This document shows, one piece after another, positions 1 to 46,202 of a stretch of DNA of 64,000 bases. The stretch's first letter is position 1. The number at the start of each line of letters is the position of its first letter. Both the position numbers and the translations under genes were made by a program. Source of the DNA: Raillietiella orientalis. Taxonomy: Eukaryota. The notes beneath the pieces were generated by a model. It searched no databases. It saw only the letters and a program-made list of their open reading frames with translations, and was not told where the DNA came from. The DNA lies in contig JAYWIR010000002.1 in the NCBI GenBank assembly GCA_036172245.1, forward strand, positions 4,588,001-4,652,000, written 5' to 3'.

Positions 1-1116
1 ACTTTCAATCCCGACTACTTAACGTGGGCATCCGAGGTGTCCGGCTTACACCAGTGCCTCACCCGAAGCCACGGCTAGATGGGAGATTACTTTGGAAATC
101 CCTGCAGGGGAAAAGGACTGGCGAGTGAACACGGGCCAGCTCACCGACACTGCGACCCTGATTGCTCCACCTCGCGGACTTTTGCACTGGGGCTTGGAGA
201 TTGGGTATTCCAGAAGACCTGAAGTGGCCCCGGTGCTCGTGAACACCCTCACCCTCCCCTTGAAGTGGCAGCAGTCGGCATTGATGCTGCTGCACTGGAC
301 CCTTCCGTTCAACGCCCGCCGGCATCGTTGAACAAGGGTGTTTGTGGATCCCAGCTGTGCAAGGTGCGGAAAGCGGCAATCCCTCCCGTGTCTGCTCGTG
401 GACTGTGTTGCCATCCGGCCCCTTTGGGAACGCTTTGCTGCGACCCTTGGAACCCCCAGCGGCAATGTCAGATATGTTCTTAGGCGGCTCCTCCTGGAAG
501 ACGCCCTCACTCCGGCCCCATCCCTAGCAGCACTGTGCTGCCCACGCGGCGGGACCGTGGCTGCATGGAGCAACGCCAGAGGAGGCCGGAACGACAGTGA
601 CCCCATCTATTTTGCTGTCCTCCTCGTGAGGACAGAGCCAATATGGCCCATCTGGGAACCATTAAACAGGAACTTGCCGGCATCCTCACAAGGATGCAGA
701 GAACACCCTCCAGCTCACGAGGATCCCTTCCGGAATCCCCTCATTTTTTCAACTATATGTTTTTTGTTTTATTTTTTGTCTCCTCTTCCCCTATGTTGCC
801 GAGGCAAACCCCGCTGGCCTGTGTGCTAGGTCCCGGCAGGTTCTTTTTAGTTGCAAGTAAGTGGCAGGATCAAACGTCCTGCCATTTTACTTGCAACTAT
901 CCACAGAGATTTATGTTTATTTTTTATAAATAAACGCCCCGGCGTGACTGGTTATTAACCACACCCGAATAGGCCGACCGTAGTCATCCTGCGAGGGGGG
1001 GGAGGGAATTGAGACCTATGACGCACCTCCATATCTCAGCATCGATCCTCCACGTTGGGAATTTGAACCCGCGGCGCTTTGTGCCTCGTGCGGGCACTGC
1101 AGCCTCGGCCGCCGCC
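1..1116 (-). mobile_element. tRNA-derived SINE copy (truncated by window edge) interrupted by a Tx1-like insert
   Basis: Minus-strand tRNA-like head with B box GGTTCAAATTCCC (1057-1069) and A-box-like TTGGCGGCGGCC. Bases 1-70 and 958-1116 match uninterrupted copies at 21.9-22.1 kb and 48.6-48.8 kb. Confidence 0.8.
71..957 (+). mobile_element. 5'-truncated L1/Tx1-clade retrotransposon 3' end (ORF2 C-terminus, defective)
   Basis: Translation WQQSALMLLHWTLP..*..CARCGKRQSLPCLLVDCVAIRPLW resembles the L1/Tx1 C-terminal zinc-finger region. It has a T-rich 3'UTR, a hairpin at 862-884, AATAAA at 929-934 and an in-frame TGA at 329-331. Confidence 0.8.
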
Positions 1117-2424
1117 AACGCGGACGTTTGGAGCGCCCACACCGTTTAGAGCGTTTGGAATCCGCTTTCGTGCTGGTTTCGAGTCAGCTCCTAGGAGAAA
1201 GCGTTTTTTCTCTACTAAATCGATCTGCGGGAATCCGAACAGACCGACCCGAATCACATTTCTGGACCAAAGCGACCAAGCGAGTGAAGCTGTGGTATGC
1301 AAGAGGTCAGACGCCGTTGGGTGCAGTCTTTTCGGTCTTCGGAGTAAAAATTCGATCCCCAGCCGAAAGCGAAGCGAACGCGCGTTCCCAGAAAACCGGA
1401 GATGTGGTTCCGGAGAGCGTCGGGGTTCTTGGTATGGAGTATTCCATGCGGCGCCAAAGAGAGCGCAGGACACCGCCTGCTGCTCGCATTGAGGAGGACG
1501 ATGAGCTGGATGCAAAGGACTCCATCCACAAGGAAAAAATCGAACGCTTGGTGGACATTTTGTGCTTCTTTAACAGCACGCTGCTGAACAAGAGAAGCGA
1601 AGAAGAAAAAAAAAGATCCAGAGGACGGATCTGCTTCCGGAGCGGACGTTTCGCGAAGGAAGAGCTGAAACCTTCCAAGGCGAAAGTGCGGCATCCGTAG
1701 ATCCGAGTCCGTCCTTCCCCCTTGGAGTCTGGGAGCATCCTTTCCGATCTAGAATTTCTTTCCTCACTATGGAGGATCACCGGGGACGCTCTCGCGGTCT
1801 ACACATCATTCACACTGGCGCTACATGATCTAGATCCAAGGCACATGGACGACGCGTACTGATTCAAAGCCGTCTTCTCCGGAACCCCGTTGCTTCTTCT
1901 TACTATTCCTCAGCTCCCATGAGTCACGCCACCGACTTCCTGGAACCACGGAAGGCTCGTGAATCTGCGGTGATGAAGAGTACGTGATTTGAATGTGTCG
2001 GGAAAAGAGAGAGAAGGAGAGGGAAAAGGACGCGATTGTTCTTAGTGATATAGCGCTTCATTAAATGGGACGTGTTCGACCCATCGCGCGGGAGCCCTTC
2101 GTGAGGGCAGACTGCTCGGATGAGACACTTTCATCTTCTTTTTCTTTTTTCTTTCGATTCGCCTGGCAACCGCGCGGTCGGATTGTCTCTTCGTGACGTC
2201 GACCAAGCACTTTTTTTTTTTTTTATCAGGAACTTCAAAAAAACAGCGCGTGACTCGCACCTACCGTATTATTTCCTTTGGCAAGTCCCTCCCACCTCCC
2301 CTTCCACCTTCTCAACATTTGGGATGTCCCTCGATCACGGCAGTCTCCAGGACCCAGAAGACGGGACACTCGGATTCTGGACGATGGAAAGAACAGAGCG
2401 AAAAAGACGAAACAAACAAACAAA

Positions 2425-3400
2425 CAAAGCGCGACTTCTCTCTTGACGCCAAAATGGTGGTCGAAGACGAGCGACTGCCAAACCTCAGGGGATTGGACGG
2501 AAGCGGTCAGCAGCAAGCATCATCATCGAGGGTGTTTCCAGATTGGCAGCTTCCAAGATCATCCATCCGAAAATAAATCACGAGCCGAGGTATCGCCCTT
2601 CTGAGGTCTACAAGAGTCGTCGCGACGCCCCTTGGTCTTTAGCTCGACAGAAAGCAAGCGCACTCTTCTCCCTTTGTTTCCTCCTTTCTTGTTCCCCCTT
2701 TCTCCGTCCTTACGTGGCGAGGCGATCTCTCTTTTGAGGGGTCGGGAGAACGGGTGCACCCATTCGTTTCCAGAAGACTTCAGGCGCGGACGCTCCAGCG
2801 AATCTCCTCCTCCGCGGAAGCGCAAAAACTCTTTGGTAACAGGGCGCCTGGAACAAATCAAAGATGCGGCGGAAGGAGGAGATGTCGGATTTCTGATCAT
2901 GAGCCTCAGCTGTGTGGAGATTTCAGAGGAACGCTAGCCGCTATCGGTCGGTTGTGGACCGCTCGTCTCGTCAGTACCCGGATGAGCAGCCCGCCGCTTA
3001 CGGGAGAGCACGCATGATCCGCATGCTCAGGCAGGCACGCTTTCCTTCGAAGGCATCGATTCGCAGCCGCGATGTCCCGGTCATCTGATTCCCGCGATGC
3101 CTTCCTGGATTTGCCTTTTCGGTAGATTGCTGCGGCCCTACACCGCGCGCCTCAACCCTCGTTTCAGGATAAGACGGGATGGAAAGAGAGAGGCGTGGGG
3201 AAGCAGAAAGGGAAAGCTTCAGCCTGTCGATTCGCTCTGTGGGTCGGAAAGATATCGTACGCAGGGGGGACCCCAATCGTTCTAGGAAAGAAACGGCCTA
3301 TTTCAGATAGGGTTTCGAACTATCCGAAGCACGACTGACTATCCCTACGATTCGGAAAGGGCGGCTATGTTTTCCGCTCTCCTCATTGCACTCTCCTTGA
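2425..3400 (+). pseudogene. Possible heavily decayed trypsin-family (S1A) serine protease
   Basis: Ordered degenerate motifs across frames: SLLTPKWWSKTSDC (~SLLTPxWVLTAAHC), SKIIHPKIN, SLVTGR..LSCVEISEER, SACSG, GGPQ..FQIG. Many frameshifts and stops. Confidence 0.35.
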
Positions 3401-3411
3401 GTGTGGGGTGG

Positions 3412-6200: not shown

Positions 6201-6329
6201 GGAGGGAGGAACGAGGTAACTCTTTAGCCGCGCAGCCCCGTGCTCTTCCTTAGCGTCGTCACTTTCCTGCCTTTTTTGGGAAAAGGGGGGGACTTAAGGT
6301 TCTTCTTTGGGGGGGGGGGGGAAGGGGTC

Positions 6330-7212
6330 CTCTAAGTACTGAAGAACCGGTTGCCCCCTTTAGTAGGGACGTCGGAGATGCTCAACGACGATGCCATGTG
6401 GACGGCTCACAAACCTCCTTAAAGCCATTGTCCGCGCTGCACGAAGGCTCGTGCAGCTTAGCCAGGAGCCCGCCCCGTAGGAATGCCCTGGTTAACCGTG
6501 GAAGGGCTCGTGAGGGAGGAGCCCTTTCCCTCTCGCTCTTAGGGGGGGAAGGGGGGAATCTCAAAGGAAACCCGCGCTCTGGTTGTCTCCGAAGGGAGCC
6601 CCGAACCTACTCTTCATTCTTTCCGGAGGGATGCCCCGGTTTTGGGGGGCTGCTCCTCTTGTCTTCTCCGAAGGGAACCCGGAAAGGGTCCTCTCCTGGA
6701 ATTTTTTCTCCAGAGGGACCACCGGAAAGGAATCGTTCCCTGCTTCCCCCTCCTCTGAAGAGAGAACCCCAAGGGATGCTTCCCATTTTCTCTGAGGGGC
6801 GCCTCCCCGAGGGGAGCAGAGCACTTCTCCTTAACACTCTGAGGAGCCGACTCCCCGGAGGGGAATACTGACCAGCTACATGGTGCGCAATGGAGGGTCA
6901 CTCCGAGGGGAGGGACGACTCCATTTTCCCAAACGGAGGGGAGTTCCGAAGGATTCCTCGATTCCCGGAAGGACCTCGGAAGGGCAACTTCCGATCCCGG
7001 AGGTCGGTCAACGGGGGGTATCAGAGGGGTTCCAGCTCTCACCAGGGTTGCATTCGAAGCCCTTGTGGCAACCGGCGTCATCCTGCAGGGAGATCACTCG
7101 AAAGCCACGACGCACCCCCCATTTCTCGGCGTGTATCCTTCCCCCGGGAGGGACTCGAGCCCGCAGCGCTCGGTTCCACGCGGAGAGACCGCGGTCGCAC
7201 GACCACCAACGC
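6330..7212 (-). mobile_element. tRNA-derived SINE, near full length, empty target site
   Basis: Head with degenerate B box (GGGCTCGAGTCCC on minus, ~7150-7162), ~40-bp internal tandem units at 6580-6820, homologous to the 21.3-22.1 kb copy. Confidence 0.8.
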
Positions 7213-8779
7213 GGGTCAAGCTGACTCTCAGAATCTTCGGTCTGGAACAGCGTTCGTCATCCGACTTGGAACGCATTCTCCAGGCATACTGAGGCATTTC
7301 CATGGTTTTTCCTGATGCTACACGCGTATTCGTAAATGTCACCTTGGCTTCCCTTCGTCAGACCACGAGGTGAGGATCCTCCTCCTTTGGCTTGGCGGAG
7401 AAGAAGCCACCTCCGTGCTCCGCATGGATGCCGCGAGCTCCAGGGCAAACAGGGCAAACCCGACCCGAGGCTTGGGATGCTCCCTCGTCTCGGGAATTTT
7501 CGCTCCAGCTCTGTGTGACGCTCCCGGCGCAGGAGGCACCGGCGGCGATGGGTTCCAAAGTAACGTGGCTCCGCCGCTCGGTTGTCTTGTGGCGAAGCCT
7601 CGGCTCTCAGCAGCGAATGTCTTCGAGCAGGCCCTCGAGAGGGAAATCAGACGAAGACACCACGGACGCACAGATCGGTGGAGCTTGGTGGTGCAACGCA
7701 GGGTGCACAGCGTCTTCCGCAAAGTGGCGCGCGCGACCCTGGTTTTTTTTTAAGGGGAGGGGATCCCCTCGAAGCATCCGCTTTTCTTTCATGAGCACCG
7801 TCCATCCGCCTTGACGTCTCGCGCTTTTGCTTTCTCGGGAAGAAGAAAAAAAGACCCTTCCATCGCGTTCCCCAGCGGAAGGTGCACGCACGGACTGGCC
7901 GCTGAATAGCAGCTGGTGAATGACCAACTGGACGCCAGCCTTCTGTCAGCATCGCCTTTGTTTCGTTCTTTCCCTCTGAAGGATTTACAGCAACGAAGAG
8001 GAATTTACGAGCTTAGCAGCAAGCAACAAAGGGCGCTGGTTCCCTGAGAAGGGGGGGGGGCGGTCTTTGCAGCCTGAGTACACGAGGGGGGAGGTCACAC
8101 GGGAAGGGCTCTATCCAGAACACGCGGTCCAGAGCTTAAGCGAGGCGCACCTGCTCGCGGTCTGGCACCACGGCTGCAGAGCCATGGGTGACGTCTCCGA
8201 AAATGCTAACAGCCGCGGTTCTTCGAGGGGGATGCAGGCCCCGTGGGGACTCGTCTCGGCGAGAACTCTCCCCCCTTCCCCCCGCTAGGGAGGGAAACGA
8301 GGAGCGGCCTTGGAAGGATGTCGCGAGGCGCGCGCATCTGGAAAGAGGAGAAAAAAGACAACTAGCTGCTAGCGTTCGAAAGACGACGCTGATGACGTGA
8401 AGAGGAGGAAGAGGAAGAAGAAAATTCCGATCTGATCGCGTTTCCTCCTCGAGTTCGGGATCTCCAGAATCGCTTTCAATTTATGGAGTGTTGCCGGTAG
8501 TTTTTTGGAAGGGTGGAGGAGTTACCTGCAAAATTCAACGATAACTCTTAACGCGGACGTTTTATGGACCAGCGGCACGTAACTCTTCGTTCCTAGCGGC
8601 ACACTCCTTAAATCTTGCTTTATCTCGTCATCTTGAAAGTCATGTGGCGGTTGGTCCAGCTCGGTCACCGAACGCGAAAGTGTGATGGCACTGCGTGTCC
8701 TTGGTGAGACGGTAAGGGGAATCGTAGAGACAGAAAGAGAAATCGCAGAGATGCGTTCCTTACTTCCCATCCGTCCCAT

Positions 8780-9215
8780 CCCGTAGAAGAATCGACGCTG
8801 CGGGTGGGTGCGTCGTCGCGCGGGTCTTGACGCTGGTTGGCTCACTGCCTTCGGGTGCGGAAGACCGCCGCGACTCTCGCGCGCGCACCGGAGACCGAGT
8901 GTCTCCGCTGACCATCTGGGATCGGAAACAGCTTCCCGGGTCCTTCAAGGAGTTACGGAGCTTCGGGAGTCTCCTCCACCCCTCCCACCGGCTTGTGTCA
9001 TGTAGTCGACCGCTACCCTCGGAAGATTCCTCTCCAGAATGTTGGAAACCTTCCCTTCGGGGAAGCTCCTCAGAAAAGTAATAAAGGAGCGGTTCCCCTC
9101 GGGATTCCCTGCCAAACAAGCGTAAGGAAGGAACGGGGACTCCTCCAGAGCCTTCCTGGATTCATGGAGTGTTCCCTTTAACTCGAGGAGTGATACGCAC
9201 TCTCTGGTGGCGTGG
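8780..9215 (+). mobile_element. SINE copy, head decayed and internally deleted
   Basis: TTCGGGTGCGG core at ~8850, CTTCCCTTCGGGGAAG at 9050-9065, and CCTTCCTGGATTCATGG..AACTCGAGGAGTGATACGCACTCTCTGGTGGC match the family. Confidence 0.65.
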
Positions 9216-9221
9216 AATGGC

Positions 9222-9725
9222 ATCCAGTCACGCCGGGGCGTTTATCTATTAAAAATAAAACTTTGACGTCAGTGGCAGGACCTTTGACCCTGCCATGTTA
9301 CTTATAACTCCGAGAAGGAACCTGTCGGGAACTGGCACGCAGGTCAGCGGGGTTCGCCTCGGCAGCACAGCGAAAGGGCAGACAAACAAAAAGGAAAAAA
9401 ATAAAACAAAAAAAGGAAAGGGGAGAGGTTTGGAAAGGGATCACTGTGTGCTGGAGGGTGACCTCTGCATCCTTGTGAGGATGCCCGCAAGTTTTGTTTC
9501 GAGACTCTCGGATGGGGTCATCTTGACGCTATCCTCATAAAGAAAACAGCAAAATAGATGGCGTCTTTGTCATCCTGGCTCCTCTGGCGTTTTGCTCTAT
9601 GCAGCCACGATCCTACCCCGTGGCCAGCAAAGTGCTGCTAGGGATGCAGCAGGTGTGAGGGCGTCGCGCGAAAATAGGCGCTTCAAAACGTCTCTGGGGT
9701 TGCTATCGGAGATCCACAGGGATGC
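9222..9725 (-). mobile_element. L1/Tx1 3'-end copy (diverged)
   Basis: Minus translation DVLKRLFSRDALTPAASLAALCWPRGRIVAA matches the 71-957 copy. Same terminal CGCCCCGGCGTGACTGG and 3' hairpin (9272-9295). Confidence 0.8.
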
Positions 9726-10329
9726 GCTCTCATATGGAGCGGAGGGCAGCACAATGGCGTGGATCGGATGGCGCGGATGGTGCCATAGAGCTTTGTGCGC
9801 TCCTCCCCCCCGAGGAGGCGAATGGTTCTTCATATGTCTTTGATTCCCCCCTTCCAAAAGATCTGAGAGCAGAGCAGCAAAAAAACGGAAGGAGATCCTC
9901 GGAATAGGACGCAGCAGCGATTTCCGCTTTCATCAGCGAAACTGCTCAGGGTCCGCGCCATGTTCCTTCCTGCCTTCCCTCGCGATGCCTCGGGGTCGCG
10001 AGTAGCTTGGGGCACTGTGCATCATGCCGCGCGCTGGACCGGCTTCGGAAGGGTTTCATTTCCGTTTTTGTGTTCCAGGACGCCAGGACGCTTTCTTCTC
10101 GCTGCCACTCGCGTTTTCATCGCCGGCCGAGGGAGCGCCTCTCCGATAATTCCGCGAAGAAAGAACGGCTCTTCCGTAATTCGAAATTCCCTTCGGAGAC
10201 AACCAGGGAGAAGGCTCCCTTAAAGGGGATTTACCCCCACCCACCCCCACCTCCTGTCAAAAAAAAAAAAAAAAAGGTAGCAGATCTACCGAGACTAAAG
10301 ACATAAATCGCAATGGGAAGCAAGGGACT

Positions 10330-23105: not shown

Positions 23106-23149
23106 ATGTGCACCCCCTATCGAGAGAAGAGAGAGCGAAATTGCATGAT

Positions 23150-25400
23150 AGATATCTTGCCATTTAGTCCTCCTCTCACGAGAACATCTCGACCGTCCTC
23201 ACCTGCTATGCGGTGCTTCTTTCTGGAGCACCCAAGGCCGGCACATCCTCCGGGAAAGTCATAGTCACCGCTAAGCTCTCCATGCCTCGGACCGCACGTT
23301 CACAGGCAGACAGAAAAGATCCCCTTATCAAATCCTCTCAGGCTCACATCCTTGGATGAGTCCCGTCCACTCTGTGCATCCCGAAGTGATGATTTTCTTT
23401 CCCGGAACGTGTGCAATTTGAAACTCCTTCTCCGAAGAGTCGCCCTGCACCAGAAGGGGGGAAGGCAGTTTCGCACTGCGAGACATTCGCCAAACGTGAA
23501 CCCAGAACGAGGGGTCATGTTGTGCCGGAGCACTCGGGTGGGGTCGCGTGCACGGACGCGTGAAACACACCCGAGACACGGTCTCGAAAGATTCGCTCTG
23601 CGGTCAGGGACGGGGCGAAGGCAGTCAAAAGGGTAAGGACGAGGCAGAGCGCTCGTGGGTGAGTAGCAAAGAGTTTTGGGGTGAGGGTCTGTGGGGAACG
23701 CTAGCAGCTGGAAGGTGGAGAAAGAGGAAGAGGAAAGGAAGAAGAGACCGAAGGAAATCGACTTCCAGGAGCTCTCGAGACGGCAGCAACCGCACCGGTG
23801 GGAAGCCAGCAGGAGTCTCTCTGGGGGACTAAGCGAAGGTGAATCCGGAAGGATGGACGGAAAGGCGTGGAATCGGAGAGGGCAGGAGGGAGGGACACCG
23901 CGCGCGTTCCGCGCAGGGGAAGGGAAGACGCTTCTCTCCCGTTGAGGGACGAACGCTTCGAGGGAAAGCCCCACAACGGTCACACGCGCGGCTGGTCACC
24001 TCGCGTTCGCTGCCGCATCCGCCAGCCCGATGCACATGGACGGGAAGCGATGCGAACCCATCTCCAGCGGCATGCACCGGCGTGCGGCGAGAAGGTGATG
24101 CGTGACCAGTGATGGCAATGACGATGCACTGTGGTCTCCATCGGAGGAGCTGCCCAGATTCACCCCCCTCTCCTCCCTCCCTCTGTAGCCGACTTGGCAG
24201 CCACCACGATCAGGAAGTCTCGGTGAGAGGAAGTGGATCCGAAGCGCCTCCACTCGTCTGTGCACGAAAGGGAAGATCGGTCGGCAGGGTCGTGTGCAAT
24301 TCCGCAGTGGACACACTCGTGGGCCCTGGAGCGTTCCTGACCGTGGCCGAGGTCACCACGGAAAACGGGAGCGCCGCAGGGGGAAACGGACTTCACGGCT
24401 TTGCTTCGGTTTCCCGGACGCAACGCTCCCGTGGGGAGCCACGCTTGGATCATTGCCAAGTCCGCGGCAGTCCTTCTTGCGCGCCTTGCAGCTTCGATGC
24501 GCGCAGCTGCGTGCGCGCGCGCCACGGATTCGGGATCGCCCGTAGGAGGGAGGGAAGCCACCGTAGCCTGAAGGACGCTGGCGCGCCTCGGAGGGGCAGT
24601 TTGCGGGCGCGGAACCGTCGCGCTCGGCGAACTCGGAATGGCGCGGGTGGGCAGGACCGAGGCAGCCAAGGCGGGAAGGCGGCGACCGGTGAGGCAGCTT
24701 TGTGTGGGATGGAAGAGCAGGGGAGGGGGGGAGAGGGTAAGAACAAGTGGGGGGAGTGCACAGCTGCTCTCATTGTCATCTCGGGGACTCGGCCAAAGGT
24801 ACCATGGGGCCAAGTTTCTGCGTCCCGGTTTCCGTAGGGGGGGAACGCGGACGGAGGGCGTGGCGAGGATGGTGGAGGAAAGATCGAGGCGAGCTGAAGC
24901 AGCAGCAGCGACCAGCCGTGGCTGCAGAAGATGGCCTCCTGAGGTAACCGTGGGACCTTGGACTCCTTCCAAGGCGGTCAGGCGGAGAGCTCCGACGCCC
25001 CCCCGAGAAAGAGCTCAGCTCGTTGGCGGAGACTGCGAAGTGCCGAAGAGGAGGCGGCCGTAAGCACCTACTGCCGTGCGACGGGGAGGGAGGAGGATGC
25101 TTTTTCGCGGTGGCTTTCCGTCGCACCTCCCCCGAAAGAGGCTTCCCTTTTCTTCCCGTGGGGTGCGTTCAGAGACGTGTCGGACAGGGCGCCATCCATC
25201 TCGTCTACTGACGCAGTAGATCGGCTCACGTCGCGGACGGAGGTCTCTTCCCCCTTTCCTCCCCGCAGATGGCGAGCGCCCTGCACGGCGTAGGTCACAT
25301 CGTCCCTGCCCGCGGTGTTTCAGAGTCTGCAGCTGCTGGAAGCCACGCAGCAGTAAAGGAGCCGGGATATGGCCGCCCCCTGCGTCCCGTGGACAGCCCG
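23150..25400 (-). mobile_element. Decayed L1/Tx1 ORF1 and start of ORF2
   Basis: Minus ORF 24160-24972 contains TVASLPP and GHGQERSRAHECVHCGIAH (RRM plus zinc-knuckle-like), followed by a purine-skewed spacer and endonuclease-like debris. Confidence 0.35.
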
Positions 25401-25489
25401 ACACCTTCTTCCCTCGCAGCCCAGAGATCAGGGGAAGACGTTTCGCAGACATGGAGACCATCTCTCCTCCGGTCGCTCGAGCTCCAGAA

Positions 25490-25900
25490 GAACAGCCTGT
25501 CTCTAGGAGTCTTCCCACCCATAGCAGAGAGGGGCAATGGAAGTCTCCGAGGTCCTCTCTTCCCCTTCAGGGAACCCCGGACGTTCATCGTGCCGAAGGG
25601 AGCCAAAGGTTTGTCCAGGTTCCCTCTTGGCGACCTCGCACGTCCCGTCGGGACGTCCGGCGGAAGCATCCGGGAAGAAGGAACTCAATGGCCCTTCGGG
25701 AACAGATGCCCTCCCTCTTGGCCTACTGTCCAGTCAGGGGAGAAAAAGGGAGCTCTCCGGCAGTGGGAGAATTCTCTGACCTCCCTTCTCTTTTCCCCTA
25801 CAAACTCCACACTCCCGAAGGAACCCTCCCGTTCCCTGCGCGGCAGATTGGGATCCTCTCGTGGAGAGGCGCGTTGCCTACGGAAGGACCCGTCTGATCC
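25490..25900 (-). mobile_element. Diverged SINE body fragment
   Basis: Degenerate CCTTCAGGGAACCCCGG / CCGAAGGGAGCC / CCCGAAGGAACCC units like the family body. Confidence 0.45.
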
Positions 25901-26299
25901 GAGAATGTCGCATGATAAGGAGTCGCGCTGTCTCCCCTTCCTTCTTGTCCCCCCCTTTGAGTGGGCCCCAAAGGATCCGAGAGTGAACTCTGCCCGGAGG
26001 CGCCTCAGACTCCTGCCATCTCCTGAGTCTTTGAAAGCCGAACCCGTAGTCTCTTCCTCTGTTCTGCCATTCTCCCCCTCCTCTCCTTCCTAGTGGGTCT
26101 TCTTGGCTCCTCGGAGTTCCCTCCTTATCTCTGGTTGCCTTGACACTCAGCTGGAGAGGGGAGACCGACCTCCCTGGGGACAGAACGAAAGAGGTCAGAG
26201 AAGGCTTGCGAATAGATGAATAGAAAGTAGGGCAGACCGGCTTGATGGCACCGAACGTGATTGGTCTAAGGCCCTGCAGCGCACAGGGAGCGAAGGGGA

Positions 26300-29200
26300 A
26301 GAATTGGCTCCCCACGAGAGTTCTCCATCATCCCCTGCTTTTCTCTTCCCTGATTGAACGGCTCCGCTCTTCGCGCGTGCAGGAGGAGAGGCAGGATGGC
26401 TCCTTGGGAAGACGGCTGCCCTTCCGTCCACTTTGGCGATCGCCGATGTCTGCCTCTGGTGGAGATTCGCCAGCGAGGGGGCCACTGGCAGGCCGGGAAG
26501 GCAGACGCTCGTCCGAGCTGGTCCCGCAGGGCAGCAGCGTGGGACTCAGATGCCCCAGTGCCGCGCCGAGAAGCAACCCCAAGAACACGCGCGGGAGTGC
26601 CCGCGTCACCCCCCAGCGGGAGCTCCCCTAGGCAATCCTCCCCACTGAGGCGTCGTGATGGCGTCCCCAGTTTCCAGGAGAGCTCGGTGCGCCGGGAAGA
26701 TGACCAGCTGCTGGCAATGCAGCCGATGAACGGAGGCGCTCGTCGGGGAGCCCTCTAGATCCCGACGCTTTCGAGGGGAATGCCGGGAAAAACGGACTCG
26801 CCCTTGCGGATCCCGGGAGAAGTCTCTGAGCATGGTAACTTTAATTGCCAGACAACGCGCCTCCCGTCGAGCGATGATCTTGGTGACCCTTCTCCCCTCC
26901 CTCCCACCATTCTTGAAGGTGCTCTCCCACTCTGCAGAAGATCCACCTCTCTCCCGTCCCGCCGATGCAGCAGAGGGCGCATTGGGTCTCCACGGTCTCT
27001 CGATGAGCTTTGGAAAGCACCGTCGAGGAGTCTCCGAGTTTCCCCAAACGCTGCTGACGGCGCTGCCACAGGGGAGAAGGAGGGTTGGACTCCTGAGTCG
27101 TCTCCACGCTTCCGCTGGCTCCTGACTCCAAGCGCTCTTCTTCAGTGTACGGCAGGGCATTCCCTCATGATCCCCAGCAAAACGGCCGCTGAGTGCAAGG
27201 GAGACACAGACCACCCCCGCACGATCTCGCTCTCCAGCCAGAGGAGGGAAGCCGACCTTTTGGGTTCTTTGTGAGAGTGTAAGAGGGGAGACGCGAGTGC
27301 GTGTTGCACAGCCATGACCGTGATGAGGGGTCGACCTTTGCAGCGATTCTTGAATCCGCACCCGTCTGGCTGGAAACTCTCGCGTTCCGAGAGGAGGAAA
27401 CCAAGTCCTTCAGTGGCACCCTGGACGTGGGGAGCTTCACCCATGTCAGGCCGCCAGCGGGACCGATGACTTGACGGGGGCGCCCAGCACTCTCTGCGGG
27501 GAGCTGGGAGAAGGGGACAGGGATGGGGGAAAGCCGAAGGCTTCCAACGCAGTTCGCCTCTCGGGTGGCAGGTGCCGCTGCCGGGTGAATGACGCCCTAC
27601 AAATCCCCGGCTGGCCACCTCTCTGCGCTGGACGCAGGAGACAAGCATCCCGCTCTCTCCAGACGGAGGCGACTCCGTTCTCGCTCCCTCCGCCCCTTCC
27701 CGCAGTTTTTGCGGGCAGGGTAGAGGAACGTAGGAGGTGGGTAGGAAGGAATTGCAAAGAGGAATATAAAAGAGGGCGGGAGACGACAAATCGGAAAAGG
27801 AAAGCACGAAGTGGATGCTCCCTGGAAAGGAGGAGAGAGAATGGCAGTGCCGGAAGGGTCTGCAAGGTCTGACGTTCCTTGACCTCCCGGAACTCCCAGC
27901 TCAGTCCGGCCTCCAGCACCTCTTCCTCCAGGGAGGAAACTCGGGGACGTTGGTGAGACGAGGTGGGAGAAGGAGCGTAGCGAGATGCGCGTCCCGGAGT
28001 CGCAAGAATCACTCCAGAGGGGACCGCCGCTTCCCGACGGCGGGGTCGATGCCGTGAATTGGCAGCAGGAAAACAGGAGCGGCAAGGGAGTCGGAAGCTC
28101 CTGTCCACTCATTCCGTCTCCTTCCTTCTTCCCTTGGACTTTTCCTCTCCTCGATCAGGGATGAAGGGGGAATCCTCCCCGGCTCCCGTCGGAAGGTCCG
28201 TGGAAAGGAGAAAGGAGAAACGAGTTCTCTAAGGCGCTGCTTCCAGGTCCGCTTCTTTCTGGAGGCCTCCCGAGCAGAAGATTCTGCATCCGGGAAGAAG
28301 ATCGGCGAAAAGTGGAAGGGAAGAAGGAAAGACAGGAACGGAAAAAAAAGGGGAAGGAGAGGAGGGGGGAAAATGCGTGTTCGCGTGGAGAGACGGAAGG
28401 GAATCCACGTGCAGGTTTCGCCCTCTGGCGAAACCCGGAGGGGGAGCTGCCGATTCCATTGGGTCCACGGGAGAAGCTGGACTCACCTTCCGCTCGGGGC
28501 TGCCACAGGTCCCATCTCCGTGGAGTCCGTCTTTCTCCGGCCAGACTGCAGCTTCCCTGAGCGCTCCAGAGCCATCTCTTGAGTAAGCGGTCGCACGCGC
28601 CGGTAGCGAACCACAGATGGAGCTGTCTCCCTCAGAGCCGCTGCTCCGGGAGGCGCGACCGCCTAGCTGTTCCCGGAGACGCCGCGGTGCTTCGCCGCCA
28701 CCGCTGCAAGGGAGGCCTTGGAGAGGCCGCTCCTCATTTCCCAGTTCCCCGGTTTCCAGTCCGACCCACTCGGTATGCTAGAGCTGGGGAGGAGAAGACA
28801 GGAGGGTCCTCGAGACGGAAGCAGCTCCAAGAGAGAAGTCTAAGGCGTCGCAGCATCACGGAGAGAGTAAGTGTGTCCTCATCAGGAAAGGTGGAATCCC
28901 ACAGCCTCCCTTCTGGAGAGGAGGAGGATGGTGAATATCTGTTCTTCGCTCCGGGAAAATCCCGGCAGCATGCAAACACGGACTGACTTCCGAGAGTCCT
29001 GTCGAACAGAGGACCTTCCGAGGGAACCACGGCCGAACCAGTAGACCTTCCGCACCTAACGGACGTTCCGGTCGCCCGGGGCAACCGAGGCGATCTCTCG
29101 TGGCTCCTCCAAATAGCTCTCCAGGGAAGAAGCGTGTGCGGCTGACCAATGCAGCAAAACGCGCCTCGGATGGACGTCCCCAGCGACAGGTGTGGTCCTA

Positions 29201-29600
29201 GTAGATGGGTGGTGGTTGGGCGCACCCGGCCATGTCTCGGAGGCAGCGCGCGCCCTTCGGGCAGTCTCGGCCTTCCTCCGAACGATTCTCACGCGCGGTC
29301 TCCCCCAGCATTCTCCGCCGATGGCTCCGCCGGTTCCCACGCGGCAAGGCGGCAGCTCGTCGGTCCCCAAACTGCTTTCTGAGGCGGAGAAAGAGGGATT
29401 CACCTCAGGCATGTTTTCCCTGCAGTGACCCAAGCACTCCTCTTTCTTTGAGAGCCATTTGGAGGAGGCGCGCAAGAAATCGATCTTCTCGGACTCGGCG
29501 TCAGGCCGGATGTTTTGCTTCCTCACGCTGAGGGCGCTCGGCTCGGATGCACCGCTCGAGAGATCGCCGCCGAGCGCCGTAGTGCCCGTCCTCGGGTGCG
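26300..29600 (-). mobile_element. Decayed L1/Tx1 debris (ORF1, APE and RT fragments, probably more than one copy)
   Basis: Minus-strand motifs GRQLHLWF (ORF1), EAPH..GLGFLL (APE), KASGSRGLP (~KSPGPDGLP) and PWRAIW (C-terminal region). Confidence 0.4.
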
Positions 29601-29641
29601 GGTGCAGGGGACGCGGCACGGAGGGCCCGGGAGGCGGACCT

Positions 29642-31170
29642 CATTGGAGGCCGTGTGGCTGCGGTCTCCGCGCGCGGCACAAAGCGCCGCAGGTTCGAAT
29701 TCCGCCTGGCGAAGGATCTGTGCCGAGAAATGAGAAGCGCATCGTATGTTTCGATCTCCTCCCTTCAATATGATGCTGGTTGGCCTGTTCGGGTGCGGCA
29801 CTGGTTGATACTTGGTCACTCCGGGGAGTTTATTTACAACATAAACACACACGTCCGTGGCAGGACATTTGATCCTGCCACGTTGCTCATAACTACGAGA
29901 AGGAAACTGCCGGGAACTGACACGCAGACCAGCGGCTTCGCCTCGGCAGCACAGGGAAAGGAGAGACAAACAAAAAGAAAAAAAAAACATAAAACAAAAA
30001 ACATACAGTTAAAAAACTGGAGGGGAGGGGGCTGGGAAGGGATCACTGTGAGCTAGAGGGTGTCCTTTGCATCCTCGTAAGGATGCCGGCAAGTTTCTGT
30101 TTAATGCTTTCCAGATGGGCCATATTGGCTCTGTCCTCACGAGGAGGACGACAAAATAGATGAGGTCACTGTCGTTCCGGCCTCCTCTGGCGTTGCTCCA
30201 TGCAGCCACGGTCCCGCCGCGTGGGCAGCACAGTGCTGCTAGGGATGGGGCCGGAGTGAGGGCGTCTCCCAGGAGGAGCCGCCTAAGAACATGTCTGACA
30301 TTGCCGCTGGGAGTTCCAAGGGTCGCAGCAAAGCGTTCCCAAAGGGGCCGGATGGCAACACAGTCCACGAGCAGACACGGGAGGAATTGCCGCTTTCCTC
30401 ACCTTGCACAGTTGGGATCCACAAACACCCTTGTTCAACGATGCCGGCGGGCGTTGAACGGAAGGGTCCAGTGCAGCAGCATCAATGCCGACTGCTGCCA
30501 CTTCAAGGGGAGGGTGAGGGTGTTCACGAGCACCGGGGCCACTTCAGGTCTTCTTCTGGAATACCCAATCTCCAAGCCCCAGAGCAACAGTTCACGAGGT
30601 CGAGCGATCGGGGTCGCAGCGTCGGTGTGGCACTGGTGGAAGTCGTAAACCCCCTGATGTCCCCGTTGACTGGCCGGCATTGGAAGCTGACTCTTCGGGT
30701 CCTTCTTGGAATAGAGGAGCCTTTCAAGGTTCCCCTCGAGTTGTAAAAATGGAGCCGTCGTTCCTCTTAAAGGAGGGGCTTCAATCGCAGTATTATGGAA
30801 CTGGTTGATCGATACCTCTCCAGAGTTTCGAGAAGGTGCTGCTCCCTTCGGAGGCGAGATTTCAGAGAAAATTTGGAAGCGCCCCTTCGGGGTCCTCTTT
30901 AGAGGAGGATACAGGGAGCGGTTCCCCTCGAGATTTCCTTCTGGAGAAGAAACTCCAGGAGCAGATCCTTTCCAGGTTCCCTTGAGAGAAGAATGAATCC
31001 CCCCCCCCCTCCCTACTCTGGAGGACCCCTCCGGAGAGAACAGGGAAGAGGTTCCCTTCGGGGCTCCCTCCCAAGCATGAGAGGAACGGACTTCTTCCTT
31101 TGGAGCCCTTCCTGGATTCACGGGGCGGTGCCTTCCAGGGGTACACCCTCTGATTTGGAGTCACCCATAC
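29642..31170 (+). mobile_element. tRNA-derived SINE carrying an antisense Tx1-like insert
   Basis: Head GGCCGTGTGGCTGCGGTCTCC..GGTTCGAATTCC (B box 29692-29703). The body resumes at 30629 and runs to ~31170. Confidence 0.85.
29806..30628 (-). mobile_element. 5'-truncated L1/Tx1 3' end with target-site duplication
   Basis: About 99% identical by eye to 45233-46033. Flanked by GGCACTGGT at 29797-29805 and 30629-30637. Confidence 0.9.
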
Positions 31171-39649: not shown

Positions 39650-41050
39650 AGTTTCATGAATGGTCACTGGAAGTGGCTGAAAGGTCACATCGGGGGTGCC
39701 AACCATTTGAACGGAGAGCCGCTGAAGAGAATCGAATAAAAGTAACAAGGATGCACGGAGCAGAAGACATCTTCGCCGTCATCGAAAGAACCGACCACGG
39801 GAGGAAGAGACGATTCCCAAAGACGCGGTCTCCTCGTGCTGATTTTTTTCTTCTTTTCCCTCCACGACGCCGCCCAGGCGAAACGGTGTGTCTCGAGATT
39901 TTCAAGCATTCAGAAGCTGAAGTAAAAAGATGGTGACCAAGGGAACTTCCTCTTATCACGCGCTACACTGCCAAGAAGCTCGAAGATAGGAGCGGCATCC
40001 ACCGGATGGAGGTTTTCGGATGCCGCCAAGCAAGGAGTTTGGCTCGGATCCTTCCCGTCGGGCGCGCTATCATCGTCAGCGGCAGCCGCAGGGCACCGAA
40101 GATGAGCATGGATTCTCATTTTCCTCATCCTGGAAAGAGTCTGAACAGGAAGGGGCAGGCGAAGCACATGGCTCCTCTGGCGACGAGATCGGAACCAAAG
40201 CACGTCTCTGGATGCACACAGGGCGGAGGACTGATCCTCTCTTTCAGGGCACATCTGGAAGGGTGCAGCTCAGAAGAGACCCTTTCGTGACGCCTCCGAA
40301 AATTTGCCTGAGGGTTTCTGTTGTTGGATGAAGGGTGCATCCTTCGGTGAAAGTGGGCGAAGGTGTCAGTCACCCTTGTCTCCCTGCAGGAATCTGCGCC
40401 TTGGTACTGCTTGTTGTCTGTGCTGCAACAGTGCCACTGTTGACGTCTTTGCAAGTAGAGGAACTCCACGCCTTCCGCAAATGAGATGCATCCGAATGGG
40501 AGAGGAGCAGGTTCGTCTCCTCATCGGGATGGCTGTTTCTCCACGAGACCGCCAGACGTTAGAGAGGAAGCTTCCACTTCTAGACGGTCCGCTGGAGGAT
40601 GGGAGTCGCCTTGCGCAGATGTTCGTTCTCTTCTCACAGGTGCCCTCCTCGTTCGTGACCTCGGGATACTTCCCGAGATCACGAACGGCGGCGTCCCGTC
40701 CCGCCTAGCGGGAACGAACCCACGGAACGAACGGAAACCCCAGCCAGCCTTCCTAATTTCTTGTGCACGGAAAGCCTCAGAATACGGAGGAGCTGCACAT
40801 CAGGACCCCGCCCCGAATCATGGCGAGTGGGAGTGGGAAGTGGAGGCACGGTCTCTCCTATTCTCCCAAGCTTCTCCGCAGTATCAGCGCACGGTCTGGC
40901 ACTGGGTTGCCCGCTCTGAGGAACCCCGCGTGGCTGGGTCGTTGCGATCCCGCCGGCATCCAGTACCGTGTAGTGGGGAGGGTGACTTCCTGATTCCTGG
41001 AGAGGAAACTCGACGACACAAGGTGCATTCAACTCCCCCGGCGCACGTGT
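39650..41050 (+). mobile_element. Decayed L1/Tx1 ORF2 fragment
   Basis: 40640-40735 aligns with 45108-45186 (TTCGTGACCTCG..CGTCCCGCCT.GCGGGAACG.ACCCACGGAACGAACGG), the 5' part of the Tx1-like insert. Upstream RT-like debris. Confidence 0.55.
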
Positions 41051-42249
41051 CAGCGTGTTCAGCATTCGAGCGGCTACCTGGAGACCCGATCCCCAAATGG
41101 GCGCTTTCCTAAGCGATTCCTCAAGAGAAGTTTTCTCGGACGAATCCCCGGAGTTTTCCGGAAATCCCCTGACGTCACAAACTGCATTTTTCACCCGGTC
41201 ACTTCCGCATGTTCCGGAGGATTCCTCTGCTTGGAGCGGTCGCCGGAAGAGGTCCACACAGAGCAATTGAGGGAAGAGAGCTAATAAAAAAAAAATCAAT
41301 ACGTATTAAACAAAAAAGTACCGAAATGCTGAGGTGAGGGGAGGGATCACAGGTCTCTCCCTGGTGGCCACTGCATCCCCTCAAGGCTGCCGGTGAGTTC
41401 TTCCTCCTGGTCGTCAGCCTCAGGCGCGGTCACCTCGCCACGTTCCCCAGGAGCGAGAAGAAGGGGATGGCGGCTTCCCTGCTGTTCCGACCCGTGTCGT
41501 CGGGGTTTCCAGCCGACACGATGCCGCGAGCGCAGCGCGAAAACCGCGATCGCCGCGGCAGGTGGCACGGAGCCATCTGACCGAGACTCTATTGGGATAG
41601 TCTTCTAAGAGGGTCAGGGACGTGGTCAAACGTGCCCACTCACACACCGGAGGACAGCACTTTCGAAAGGCAGGCGCGCAAAGTCTCTCTTTGGCTGCAC
41701 CTCTGTCACAGTCCGGGGTCACGGTTCCCCTGATCCAGCAGTGGAGGTGCGCGTCGCATGAGAAGTCACAACGCCGAGTCTTGCCTCTTCTCGAGAGCCG
41801 CCTCCTTCACTCGACTGGAATCTTCGTAAAGTCTTTCTCCTGATGAGCGTTCACCTTGTGGATCCTCGATCTTGTAATGCACCCTGCAGATTGTCCACAT
41901 TCTCTACCTTGCTGTTCCTCAGTCCATCAGAAGGCGTGCAAGAGCAGCTGCCTCTTCGAAAGTGCGGTTATCAATGAGCTGTGTTGGGGGGAGGGGGGGT
42001 ACGTTGAAAGATTGATGCCAGAGTAGAAGAGGAGGAAATCGTGGCTCTCAGACAGTGCCGTGATGACCACCGACCCGATGAAAACGGAAAAGTTGATGAG
42101 CGATGCGAGAGCCAGACTACGGGTTGCCGCAGGTATTCACTGTTCCCAAGATTCAGAAAGTCAGGGATGGATGCACGTGGAGCTCATGTGCCCTCTTTCC
42201 TCTTCCCTTTCAGAAGAATGAGGGAGTTTCTGTCAAAAAAAAAAAAAAT

Positions 42250-42930
42250 CCCCTAAAGTGGCAGGAATCGGCGACCCTGCTGTTGCATTGGAGCCTCCCG
42301 TGCCTCATCATCGTACCCGTGGGAGTGCAAGCCCGAACTGCAAGTGCGGAGAAAGAGTCCCTCCCGCACCTGTTCGTGGATGATGTTGCTCTCCTTCCCA
42401 TGTGGGAGCGCTTTCCGCGTCCCTGCGGATCCCCGAGGGCAACCCCAGAGACGTTCTGGAGCGCCTCTTCCCGCGAGAAACCCTCACGCCGGCCGCATCT
42501 CTAGCAGCCTACGCGGGATCGTGGCTGCATGAAGCAAGGCAAGAGGAGTCCAGGACGATAGGAACACCATCTATTTCTCCGTCCTATTCTTGAGGATAGT
42601 GTCAAGATAGTCTCATCTGGGAATGATAAACAGGAACCTGCCAGCATCCTGCAAAGGATGAAGAGAACGCCCTACAGCAACCGATGATCTCTTCCTCAAC
42701 CTTCCCAATTTTTTTTGTATATATTTGTTGATTTATTTTTTGTTTTGTTTTTCCTGTCCCCTCACCCCCCACCCCGCTGCCTAGGACAACCTCGCCGGTC
42801 TGTGTGCCAGCTCTAGGCAGGTTGTCATGGTTACATTTGTAACGTGGCAGGACCAAGAGTCCTGCCACTGACTGACTTGTATGTTTATTTTTATATAAAT
42901 GAACACCCCTGCGCAACCTGGTGTTAAGTC
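42250..42930 (+). mobile_element. L1/Tx1 3'-end copy (diverged)
   Basis: PLKWQESATLLLHWSLP..ESLPHLFVDDVALLPMWERF, 3' hairpin at 42844-42868 and T-rich UTR. Confidence 0.8.
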
Positions 42931-42934
42931 ACTT

Positions 42935-43435
42935 CCGAGGATGCGCGGAGCTATCCGGGAACGCTGCAGAGATCTCCACTTCTTCCGACGGGATTCCAAG
43001 GAGACCCGCCTGGCAAGGTCCTTTCTTTCGGGCGCTCCCCTAAAGGAGCGGCGTGCTTCTTGTACACACTGGTGAGGCGTCATCAATCCACCAGCTCCAT
43101 GGTACGAGATGGAGGGTCTCCACTGAGGAAGGGGACGACGTCTCCACTGCACAATCGGAGGGGAACCTCGAAGGGAACCTCACTCCTCGATTTTGTTTCC
43201 TGGAAGAACCTCGGAGGGTCGACTCCCAATCTCGGCCATTCATCGGGGGCATCTGTTTTTTTTAGCGGCAACCAGTGCCGCACCCGAATGCAAGCTAACC
43301 ATCTCCATTTTGCGGGGAGAACTTGGAACCCACGATGCACTCATTTCTCTGGCATCGCTCTTCCCCCAAGTGGGATTCGAACCCGCTACGCTTTAGGCCA
43401 CGCGAGCAGATCGTAACCACGTGGCTTCCGACGTG
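42935..43435 (-). mobile_element. tRNA-derived SINE, empty target site
   Basis: B box GGGTTCGAATCCC (43372-43384 on minus) and a single ACCAGTGCCGCACCCGAA at 43271-43288. Confidence 0.8.
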
Positions 43436-43479
43436 GAGAGGGTGGCGAGGGTGGAAGGGCGATCCATTTGACGCGCCGC

Positions 43480-44230: not shown

Positions 44231-44259
44231 TCGAAGATAGCCGGGCCTCTCCTTCTCCG

Positions 44260-44560
44260 GGAAGAAACTCCCCAGAGGCGCACTGAAGTACGCGAAGTAC
44301 CGAACTGTGCGGGTTCCCGAGCGGATCCGATCAGGCTGCCCTGACCGCGACGCACCAGCTGCACACACGTGCGGGACACATTCGTCCCGCTGTCCACCGT
44401 GCCAGTACCGCGACAAGATCATCACGAAGCATCCTGCTTCGAGCGCTGCCTCCGAGACTGACGAGGGAGGCCGAGTCGGAACGCCGACATGGTACTCCGA
44501 CCCGGAAGGCACGTCGGGTCACGGGCTCGGCAAAGTGGCGGCCGCAGTCTCCATGCGTGC
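44260..44560 (+). mobile_element. Possible L1/Tx1 ORF1 fragment
   Basis: AKYRTV..TWYSDP resembles the better-preserved ORF1 at 63.6-64 kb (AKYCTV..LWYVGKP). Confidence 0.3.
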
Positions 44561-44769
44561 TCTCAGCACCGACTCGAAGCGGGTACCGGAGAGTGCAGGA
44601 GCCGGGTCGCCACCCTGCCTAGTGTCCACCGCACCAGCACCCCGGAAGCCTTCCGACCGCTGAAACAGGTGCTGGCGAGGGCTGCTGTGCCATGCTGATT
44701 CCGTCGGCGGCCTCTCATCCTTGCCGTTTCGCTACGACGCAGCTGTCCATTAGGATGCCACCACTGAAC

Positions 44770-46202
44770 GACTCACTGGAGGGGGGCGCTCCTAAAATTT
44801 CTTCTCCGGAAAGACGCACTGGAAAGGATCCGTTCCTCATTTCCTCCTCTGAAGAGAACCCCGAAAAGAAGCCTCTCAATTTCTCTGGAGGGAGCAGAGC
44901 ACTTCTTCTTAATACCCTGGAGAGACAAACCTCCCCCCCTAAGGGGGTATCAACCAACCCCATAGTACGGCTCCATTCTCGCAATCGGAGGAGGACCCCG
45001 AAGGGAGTTGGTCCTTGATTCCTGGGACCCTGGAAGGTCGACTTCCATTCCCAACCACTCATCGGGGACATCAGGTTTCCGGTTTTTACCAGTGCTTCCT
45101 CACTTTTGCCCTTCTCATTCGTGACCTCGAGATTCTTCCGACAGGTCCCGTCCCGCCTCGCGGGAACGGACCCACGGAACGAACGGGTGCTCAGTACCAA
45201 CGGATCAGCTCACCGACTCTGCGATCCCGATTGCTCGACCTCGTGAACTGTTGCTCTGGGGCTTGAAGATTGGGTATTCCAGAAGAAGACCTGAAGTGGC
45301 CCCGGTGCTCGTGAACACCCTCACCCTCCCCTTGAAGTGGCAGCAGTCGGCATTGATGCTGCTGCACTGGACCCTTCCGTTCAACGCCCGCCGGCATCGT
45401 TGAACAAGGGTGTTTGTGGATCCCAACTGTGCAAGGTGAGGAAAGCGGCAATTCCTCCCGTGTCTGCTCGTGGACTGTGTTGCCATCCGGCCCCTTTGGG
45501 AACGCTTTGCTGCGACCCTTGGAACTCCCAGCGGCAATGTCAGACATGTTCTTAGGCGGCTCCTCCTGGGAGACGCCCTCACTCCGGCCCCATCCCTAGC
45601 AGCACTGTGCTGCCCACGCGGCGGGACCGTGGCTGCATGGAGCAACGCCAGAGGAGGCCGGAACGACAGTGACCTCATCTATTTTGTCGTCCTCCTCGTG
45701 AGGACAGAGCCAATATGGCCCATCTGGAAAGCATTAAACAGAAACTTGCCGGCATCCTTACGAGGAGGCAAAGGACACCCTCTAGCTCACAGTGATCCCT
45801 TCCCAGCCCCCTCCCCTCCAGTTTTTTAACTGTATGTTTCTTGTTTTATGTTTTTTTTTTTCTTTTTGTTTGTCTCTCCTTTCCCTGTGCTGCCGAGGCG
45901 AAGCCGCTAGTCTGCGTGTCAGTTCCTGGCAGTTTCCTTCTCGTAGTTATGAGCAACGTGGCAGGATCAAATGTCCTGCCACGGACGTGTGTGTTTATGT
46001 TGTAAATAAACTCCCCGGAGTGACCAAGTATCAACCAGTGCCGCACCCGAACAGGCCAACCAGCGTCATATTGAAGGGAGGCGGGGGGGGGAATCAAAAC
46101 CCAGGACGCATCCCTCATTCCTCGGCTCGAATCCTTCCCCGGGTGGGATTCGAACCGGCAACGCTTTACATGGAGATCGCAGCCACACTTTTGCCAACGC
46201 GG
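44770..46202 (-). mobile_element. tRNA-derived SINE carrying an antisense Tx1-like insert
   Basis: B box GGTTCGAATCCC (46145-46156 on minus). Body at 44770-45095. Confidence 0.85.
45096..46033 (+). mobile_element. 5'-truncated L1/Tx1 3' end with target-site duplication
   Basis: Flanked by ACCAGTGC at 45088-45095 and 46034-46041. ORF2 C-terminal translation carries stops. Confidence 0.9.

Follow-up and report, generated by a model that had tools for sequence, protein, structure and literature searches.

Three LINE 3' ends at one nucleotide of a tRNA-headed SINE in Raillietiella orientalis

In a 64,000-nt stretch of Raillietiella orientalis DNA (GenBank assembly GCA_036172245.1, contig JAYWIR010000002.1, positions 4,588,001 to 4,652,000; hereafter the window) we found three fragments from the 3' end of a long interspersed nuclear element (LINE), c1, c2, and c3, each lying antisense inside a different copy of a short interspersed nuclear element (SINE) with a tRNA-like head. 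All three end at the same SINE nucleotide and on the same strand. We consider it probable, with considerable reserve, that a non-autonomous LINE-derived unit of ~830 nt inserted three separate times at one site of old, diverged SINE copies. All results on the LINE unit and the SINE rest on this one window. The three fragments had been noticed in an earlier sequence-only reading of the window, and BLAST and nhmmer agree on their relatedness and on their antisense position in three SINE copies.

The 3' ends of c1-c3 fall at position 173|174 of a SINE profile of 753 positions, built from copies inside the window, directly after ...TTCGGGTGCGGCACTGGT on the SINE sense strand, which bears out the common 3' junction described in the sequence-only reading. 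The flank at all three LINE ends reads ACCA(GTGCC)GCACCCGAA, and the last target bases before the junction are GGCACTGGT. With up to 3 mismatches allowed, the 18-mer TTCGGGTGCGGCACTGGT occurs six times in the window (0.04 expected), at three filled sites (50, 29788, and 46034) and three empty ones (43271, 21921, and 48680). The shorter GGCACTGGT also occurs six times (0.5 expected), 29797 and 30629 included. Given one insertion, the probability that two more hit its nucleotide and strand in a SINE of 750 nt is ~4 × 10⁻⁷. Chance does not explain three insertions at one nucleotide and strand, and the observation itself is real and non-random.

Each insertion is bordered by a target duplication, as had been proposed. 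At c1 the tail side of the SINE (1-75, minus strand, profile 146-223) is cut by the window edge, and the SINE head lies at 958-1123 (minus, profile 2-166); profile alignment of 50-75, the 5' copy, with 958-976, the 3' copy, which has a 6-nt deletion, gave a duplication of at least 26 nt. At c2 the SINE head (29645-29805, plus) and tail (30629-31170, plus, profile 160-657) carry GGCACTGGT at 29797-29805 and 30629-30637, a duplication of 9 nt, or up to 14 nt with microhomology. At c3 the tail (44766-45095, minus, profile 165-520) and head (46034-46202, minus) carry the 8-nt ACCAGTGC at 45088-45095 and 46034-46041. The duplication copies are still identical in c2 (9/9), c3 (8/8), and, outside the 6-nt deletion, c1 (12/12). 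A longer c1 duplication of ~65 nt is no more than weakly suggested: it appeared in pairwise alignments to only 2 of 7 SINE copies (scores reached in 1/300 and 11/300 shuffles), and the profile gave it no support. Mimicry of the target motif by the LINE 3' terminus was rejected, as local alignment scores of LINE ends against SINE copies were 7-12 and no better at insertion sites than at other positions.

The LINE units between these duplications span 131-957 in c1 (plus), 29806-30628 in c2 (minus), and 45200-46033 in c3 (plus). LINE homology starts at 131 in c1, which corresponds to 45200 in c3, and 11 nt further inside in c2, at the equivalent of 45211, so that all three starts lie within 11 nt. 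The sequences that join them to the SINE are different: c2 is joined directly, with GGTG microhomology, c3 through a 104-nt filler (45096-45199, plus), and c1 through 55 extra nt (76-130, plus) that stand between the SINE duplication and the LINE homology, are not LINE by comparison, match no other LINE copy, and may, on a weak resemblance, be partly SINE head. The claim that the 5' ends differ in all three therefore holds for the junction sequences and fails for the LINE starts, and the variable 5' truncation that had been inferred from it was not recovered among c1-c3; two other fragments, c9 and c42 (described below), are shorter. Filler such as that in c3 would be expected from a template switch as reverse transcription ends. 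Positions 45107-45186 of it match 40641-40734 at 88-95% identity, over a sequence of ~90 nt that ends in ...GGAACGAACGG, and at both loci the match stops at the identical base. Its source may be a small RNA or another retroposon whose 3' end was picked up through template switching.

The hosts of the three units are much more diverged than the units themselves. Outside a 48-nt tract common to c2 and c3 (discussed below), the SINE flanks of the filled copies show 66-77% identity in the head and 67% in the tail, which does not exceed their identity to the empty copies (54-78%); for c2 vs. c3, 206/336 positions agree in the tail, and 76/113 in the part of the head past the tract. The inserts match at 813 of 822 positions in c2 vs. 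c3 (LINE part) and at 533 of 561 in c1 vs. c3 (ORF part), and central insert identity is 97-100%, compared with 61-77% for the host flanks. This difference argues for three separate integrations and against an amplified composite. In the 3' untranslated region (UTR), c9, whose insertion lies at a different point of the SINE, matches the site-bound copies as well as these match one another (c9 vs. c3 82%, c9 vs. c1 80%, c1 vs. c3 78%), so insert relationships do not track the site. A tree of the SINE flanks, as suggested in the sequence-only reading, was an unresolved star that settles neither history, with 0/8 inner branches supported and the filled copies forming a clade in 0/200 bootstrap trees. 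The composite SINE that the sequence-only reading had offered as its alternative fits poorly, given flanks of 61-77% identity, differing 5' junctions and duplication lengths, and inserts far less diverged than their surroundings.

The host repeat itself was recovered by the profile search as 17 pieces totalling 6019 nt, or 9.4% of the window. Its copies are mutually 54-78% identical, and we therefore place their spread in an old burst. A tRNA-Val-like structure was predicted by ARAGORN at 1048-1124, in one SINE head (that of c1), and a GGTTCGAAT box, the B box of the tRNA-like head, is conserved in the head alignment. The body is long and rich in CCCTTCGGGG-like motifs, and is followed by an A run (21326-21296 in the best copy). 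By its tRNA-like head and B box, its A-rich 3' region, and its dispersed copies, which have duplications of their own, the repeat is a tRNA-derived SINE. The best copy is bounded by a 12-nt direct repeat, TTAAAACATCAC (22123-22112 and 21180-21169, minus), that encloses ~931 nt, so the retroposed unit would extend ~115 nt past the internal A run. Other copies also have common sequence after the A-rich stretch (GCTxAAAGGxxAACAGC...). Since the sequence continues past the A run, the 753-position profile does not cover the whole SINE, whose true 3' terminus is not a poly(A) run.

Searches with a LINE profile (nhmmer) found nine fragments in the window (c1, c2, c3, c9, c41, c42, c50, c52, and c62), none of which extends past ~830 nt from the 3' end; the matches at the shared site span 143-948 (plus) in c1, 30626-29815 (minus) in c2, and 45212-46024 (plus) in c3. 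Translation yielded the C-terminal ~200 residues of ORF2, followed by a 3' UTR of ~270 nt, and this is also the layout of c1, whose ~200 codons include an in-frame TGA. That TGA is common to c1, c2, and c3; c62 and c50 have TGG at this codon. A Cys-His zinc knuckle is present near the ORF2 C-terminus and reads CDRCGKKETLPHLLLDC (CX2CX7HX4C) in c62. It has decayed in the three units: c1 has C replacing H, and c2 and c3 have a stop inside the motif, a second TGA that these two have in common. No A run was present at any of the seven LINE 3' ends, which lie ~20-30 nt after an AATAAA-like signal (AATAAA ~20 nt before the end in c3), and in lacking poly(A) the family is unlike L1 proper.

A Cys-His knuckle near the ORF2 C-terminus is taken as a mark of L1/Tx1 elements. 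By its protein hints, which are this knuckle and a lead from the ESM Atlas (a cluster with 44% of members carrying zf-RVT, score 0.93), the unit would be of L1/Tx1 type. The ORF2 C-terminus matched no family in Pfam and, with stops written as X, none of the longer proteins in a word-index search. A HMMER scan of 1.84 billion representative proteins gave two weak matches, an 87-aa fragment and a repeat protein. The 87-aa fragment, P0002 from one JGI/IMG metagenome contig, is the only clear database relative (E = 1.7 × 10⁻⁶), and most resembles the c50-type copy (ARWPHLGRMRVELAG vs. ARWPHLERTRMELA). Metagenome scans for related loci returned no relative, and pattern scans of viral contigs returned no match. 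Nine frames, taken from the three regions upstream of c50, c62, and c52, were scanned for reverse transcriptase (RT) and apurinic endonuclease (APE) domains, and none was detected.

The common nonsense codon, the clustered 5' starts, and the lack of RT or APE domains in those upstream regions point to a non-autonomous unit of ~830 nt, and we suggest with moderate confidence that it is a discrete unit mobilised in trans. The clustered starts may alternatively reflect recurrent 5' joining where a LINE position has microhomology to the fixed target, as the c2 junction would allow. A conserved hairpin of 8 bp (GGCAGGAT...GTCCTGCC) was observed in the 3' UTR, ~60 nt before the LINE 3' end, at approximately 45965-45990 in c3, 869-894 in c1, 9265-9290 in c9, 42843-42868 in c42, and 62010-62035 in c62. 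In the predicted fold, 3 of 12 pairs keep pairing via two-sided changes in at least one copy, and the hairpin may be a plausible recognition element for the RT.

Five further SINE copies contain the site in its empty form. Four of them had been reported in the sequence-only reading, at 7.0, 21.9, 43.27, and 48.68 kb; all were found again, and the one at 8850-8867 is added here. The motif is intact at 43271-43288 (minus, SINE 43022-43432), has 3 mismatches at 21921-21938 (minus, in the full-length SINE 22105-21334 and beyond) and at 48680-48697 (minus, SINE 48865-48205), and is mutated at 7041-7058 (minus, TTCGAATGCAACCCTGGT, SINE 7214-6326) and at 8850-8867 (plus, SINE 8774-9216). The target-derived 5' motif copy is intact at 3/3 filled sites vs. 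1/5 empty sites. In all, 3 of the 8 SINE copies in the window that contain the site are filled; split by motif, occupancy was 3/4 where GGCACTGGT is intact and 0/4 where it is mutated (Fisher one-sided p = 0.07). The site preference of c1-c3 is probably sequence-dependent.

The other LINE ends set a limit to this preference. Fragment c9 (9218-9755, minus) lies antisense in the same SINE family at profile ~673, where profile 660-673 is present on either side as a duplication of ~14 nt. Fragment c42 (42250-42932, plus) has its 3' end 90 nt short of where the antisense SINE 43022-43432 becomes recognisable. Its flanks were negative in the SINE profile search; in pairwise alignment, 0/200 shuffles reached the observed score in one of six comparisons per flank, which weakly suggests that c42 lies inside a SINE tail. 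The diverged fragments c50 (49926-50502, minus) and c62 (61966-62769, minus), the latter with its knuckle kept, have non-SINE 3' flanks. At least 4 of 7 LINE ends thus fall in a SINE that covers 9.4% of the window (p = 0.002). With c9 at another SINE position and c50 and c62 outside the SINE, the wider LINE family is not strictly site-bound. The proposal that the family uses the SINE as its landing site accordingly stands for the c1-c3 sub-lineage (3/3) and not for the four other related 3' ends; the site preference is a property of one sub-lineage, in small numbers. A further LINE fragment at 41267-41793 (minus) is inverted relative to c42, and both start at LINE profile 113-115. Their 5' ends face each other 456 nt apart, with an A14 run preceding c42. 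As the two are ~50% alike in match columns, they do not represent a recent inverted duplication.

Target-primed reverse transcription at a defined nick, as the sequence-only reading had proposed, fits recurrent, separate integration at one nucleotide with duplications. An endonuclease/RT supplied in trans would recognise, or strongly prefer, the target sequence and place the first-strand nick on the SINE sense strand directly after GGCACTGGT (GGT| within the target TTCGGGTGCGGCACTGGTGGAAGCC). The freed 3' OH would then prime reverse transcription of a template without poly(A), possibly with the conserved 3' UTR hairpin as the element recognised by the RT. The second-strand cut would be variable, at a distance of 8 to at least 26 nt, and a variable cut leads to duplications of unequal length. 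The 5' end would finally be joined via microhomology in c2, or after a template switch in c3.

The near-identity of c2 and c3 continues 48 nt beyond the LINE end into the SINE head (29758-29805 in c2 and 46034-46081 in c3), with 47 of 48 positions matching, including shared changes that depart from the SINE consensus, a likeness that the sequence-only reading had overlooked. Beyond the tract, identity falls to 67% at a homopolymer run. At a background identity of 75-85%, 47 or more matches out of 48 would arise by chance with a probability of 2 × 10⁻⁵ to 4 × 10⁻³. Over the same 48 nt, c1 and c3 are no more alike than unrelated SINE copies. Either later gene conversion between the two copies, which are inverted and 15 kb apart, or the copying of a co-transcribed flank during integration could have produced the tract. 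Gene conversion requires nothing new: the tract would end with the homology on its left and fade in diverged SINE on its right. The co-transcribed flank is the more interesting of the two, as the template RNA would have run into the SINE, with 48 nt copied at integration. Under either reading c2 and c3 represent two integrations, since they lie in different SINEs with different 5' junctions. A stronger version, in which the unit homes by RNA plus protein, its RNA extending into the SINE head and a mismatched primer being trimmed after the nick before the 48 nt are copied, seems to us rather doubtful. If it were true, each integration would overwrite part of the host SINE with the donor version, and the retroposon would have a decaying SINE as a safe harbour while renewing its own target by a conversion-like footprint.

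Several observations weigh against three separate insertions at a preferred site. Only three cases are available, all within 46 kb of one window; 4 of the 7 related LINE 3' ends lie elsewhere than SINE 173|174; and for occupancy against motif the test gives no better than p = 0.07. A single ancestral junction would equally produce the near-coincident 5' starts, and a clade of filled copies was not rejected by the approximately unbiased (AU) test (p = 0.25; for c2+c3, p = 0.35). Their 47/48 common flank also makes c2 and c3 less than fully independent as sequences. From 45267 to 46081 the two are near-identical, with 6 differences in 815 columns including the SINE tract, and their differences are uneven, with 4 in the first 55 nt vs. 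6 in the next 815 (Poisson p = 8 × 10⁻⁴). The comparison of c1 and c3 is a mosaic, 2.7% different over 45295-45745 (c1 228-680), a stretch of ~450 nt of broken ORF, and 20-40% different on both sides. This pattern suggests recombination or conversion among LINE copies or between templates, and as exchange between copies occurs, insert identity is no clean clock.

Such exchange is one of the points in favour of a composite, in which a single old insertion was copied by SINE retroposition or DNA duplication, indels later remodelled the 5' junctions, and conversion rejuvenated the LINE parts. The 11-nt spread of LINE starts and the outcome of the AU test agree with it; so do the 3' UTR identity of c1 and c3 (78%), little above that of the SINE flanks (66-72%, match columns), and the high share of site-containing SINE copies that are filled (3/8). 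We judge this history distinctly improbable: the filled flanks resemble one another no more than they resemble empty copies and group in none of the 200 bootstrap trees, the three insertions all differ in junction structure and in duplication length, c9, though inserted elsewhere, is equally close in the 3' UTR, and the two copies of each duplication have stayed identical while 4/5 empty copies have a decayed motif. Gene conversion is, moreover, unlikely to start between sequences already 30% diverged. It is scarcely conceivable that sequence specificity played no part, the SINE being simply abundant or a general hotspot and the coincidence due to chance or local rearrangement. The repeat does make up 9.4% of the window, and some LINE fragments lie elsewhere in the SINE (c9, perhaps c42) or beyond it altogether (c50, c62), but this leaves both the threefold use of one nucleotide and strand (~4 × 10⁻⁷) and the excess of LINE ends in the SINE (at least 4/7, p = 0.002) without a cause.

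The fixed 3' junction could also have been inherited in RNA. In such a transducing lineage there would be one ancestral junction, from which a transcript carrying at least 48 nt of antisense SINE anneals to other SINEs and primes there, with no new cut by a site-specific endonuclease. Past the LINE end, c2 and c3 agree at 47/48 SINE positions, with derived substitutions in common, and then at only 76/113, as this history would leave them; with 7/7 LINE ends lacking poly(A) after AATAAA, read-through is plausible. Co-transcription with the target is also said, in passages of PMC4494074, to strengthen specific integration of the R1/R2 type. Inheritance of the junction is nonetheless unlikely in our view. 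On the target side, SINE sequence picks up again at profile 160-165 for c2 and c3 and at 146 for c1, that is 8-28 nt from the junction, in the range of ordinary duplications arising from a nick at 173|174; under the inherited junction nothing would constrain these positions, and a target deletion of ~40 nt ending near the same base would be required in both c2 and c3. The 3' end of c9 stops at the same LINE terminus without a SINE segment, and c1 and c3 show no special likeness within the 48 nt. Separate insertion of the ~830-nt unit at a preferred SINE site therefore remains the explanation that we favour.

Tx1-clade LINEs with preferred sites in interspersed repeats are known. Passages of PMC4494074 describe Tx1L in the piggyBac-type Tx1D of Xenopus, Tx1-Mar in Mariner-N4_AMi of crocodilians, Tx1-8_Crp/Tx1-4_AMi in long terminal repeat (LTR) elements, and Tx1-9_AMi in Harbinger, together with the non-autonomous SINEU, which has the same Mariner-N4_AMi target, often in opposite orientation. 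According to PMC4640811, most target-specific families fall in the early-branched, Tx1, and R1 groups. Like Tx1L and Tx1-Mar, as those passages present them, c1-c3 occupy a favoured site within a different interspersed repeat and are bordered by target duplications; the differences are that the host here is a tRNA-headed SINE and that only a broken derivative of ~830 nt was seen, without an autonomous element.

The elements R1 and R2 of 28S ribosomal DNA (rDNA), the second of which uses a restriction-like endonuclease, likewise have a fixed 3' junction and need no poly(A). Their targets are tandem rRNA genes, unlike the dispersed, decayed SINE copies found here. Co-transcribed target sequence aids their precise integration, as stated in a passage of PMC4494074; for the present unit the 48-nt common flank of c2 and c3 is the sole hint of it. 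The same source lists Keno (U2 small nuclear RNA, snRNA) and Kibi and Koshi (microsatellites) as target-specific elements of the Tx1 clade. The targets of these families are kept intact by selection or by their own structure, in contrast to the SINE motif, lost at 4/5 empty sites; the same contrast applies to Mutsu (5S) and Dewa (tRNA arrays), which are also target-specific Tx1-clade elements.

Ordinary 5'-truncated L1 insertions leave target-primed footprints, microhomology at the 5' junction, and 5' filler DNA; they carry a poly(A) tail and follow a loose TT|AAAA preference. With nested insertions of this kind, c1-c3 share the target-primed footprint, the 5' microhomology, and the filler. 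They differ in the absence of poly(A) at 7/7 ends and in the threefold use of one nucleotide. Our literature searches, with Repbase-type reports and the supplements of PMC4494074 that hold target tables outside their scope, found no LINE specific for a SINE site. The unit probably joins the known class of target-specific LINEs, with a SINE as landing pad as its unusual part. In its operation the site habit resembles that of target-specific Tx1-clade LINEs, a resemblance to the clade by site behaviour only, and the Tx1-like label of the sequence-only reading goes further than the window supports.

Target-specific LINEs serve as models for the choice of DNA sites by an endonuclease/RT and as starting points for site-directed integration tools. 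If the reading is true, a SINE-targeting lineage would differ from rDNA, snRNA, and microsatellite specialists in having a target that is very numerous but freely decaying. Because the SINE decays freely, the supply of sites would shrink over time unless mismatches are tolerated or the site is rewritten, and the co-evolution of a LINE and its SINE target would be directly measurable in one genome. For annotators it would carry a warning that nested LINE-in-SINE structures are no composite SINE families. Should the pattern fail genome-wide, c1-c3 would represent an ordinary cluster of nested repeats.

The remainder of the window offered few other features. Its G+C content is 53.5%, it contains zero N, and its longest open frame is at most 293 codons. 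No tandem repeats were found in it, and an Rfam search of the window at the gathering threshold gave no matches. Ten long open reading frames of the window matched no Pfam family; eight of them lie in or beside a G+C-rich block (60-64%) at 24000-30000, directly upstream of the c2 SINE head, in which overlapping stop-free frames of 150-290 codons occur on both strands. A perfect 60-nt inverted repeat (51739-51798 and 52062-52121), with arms 263 nt apart, adjoins the LINE fragment c52.

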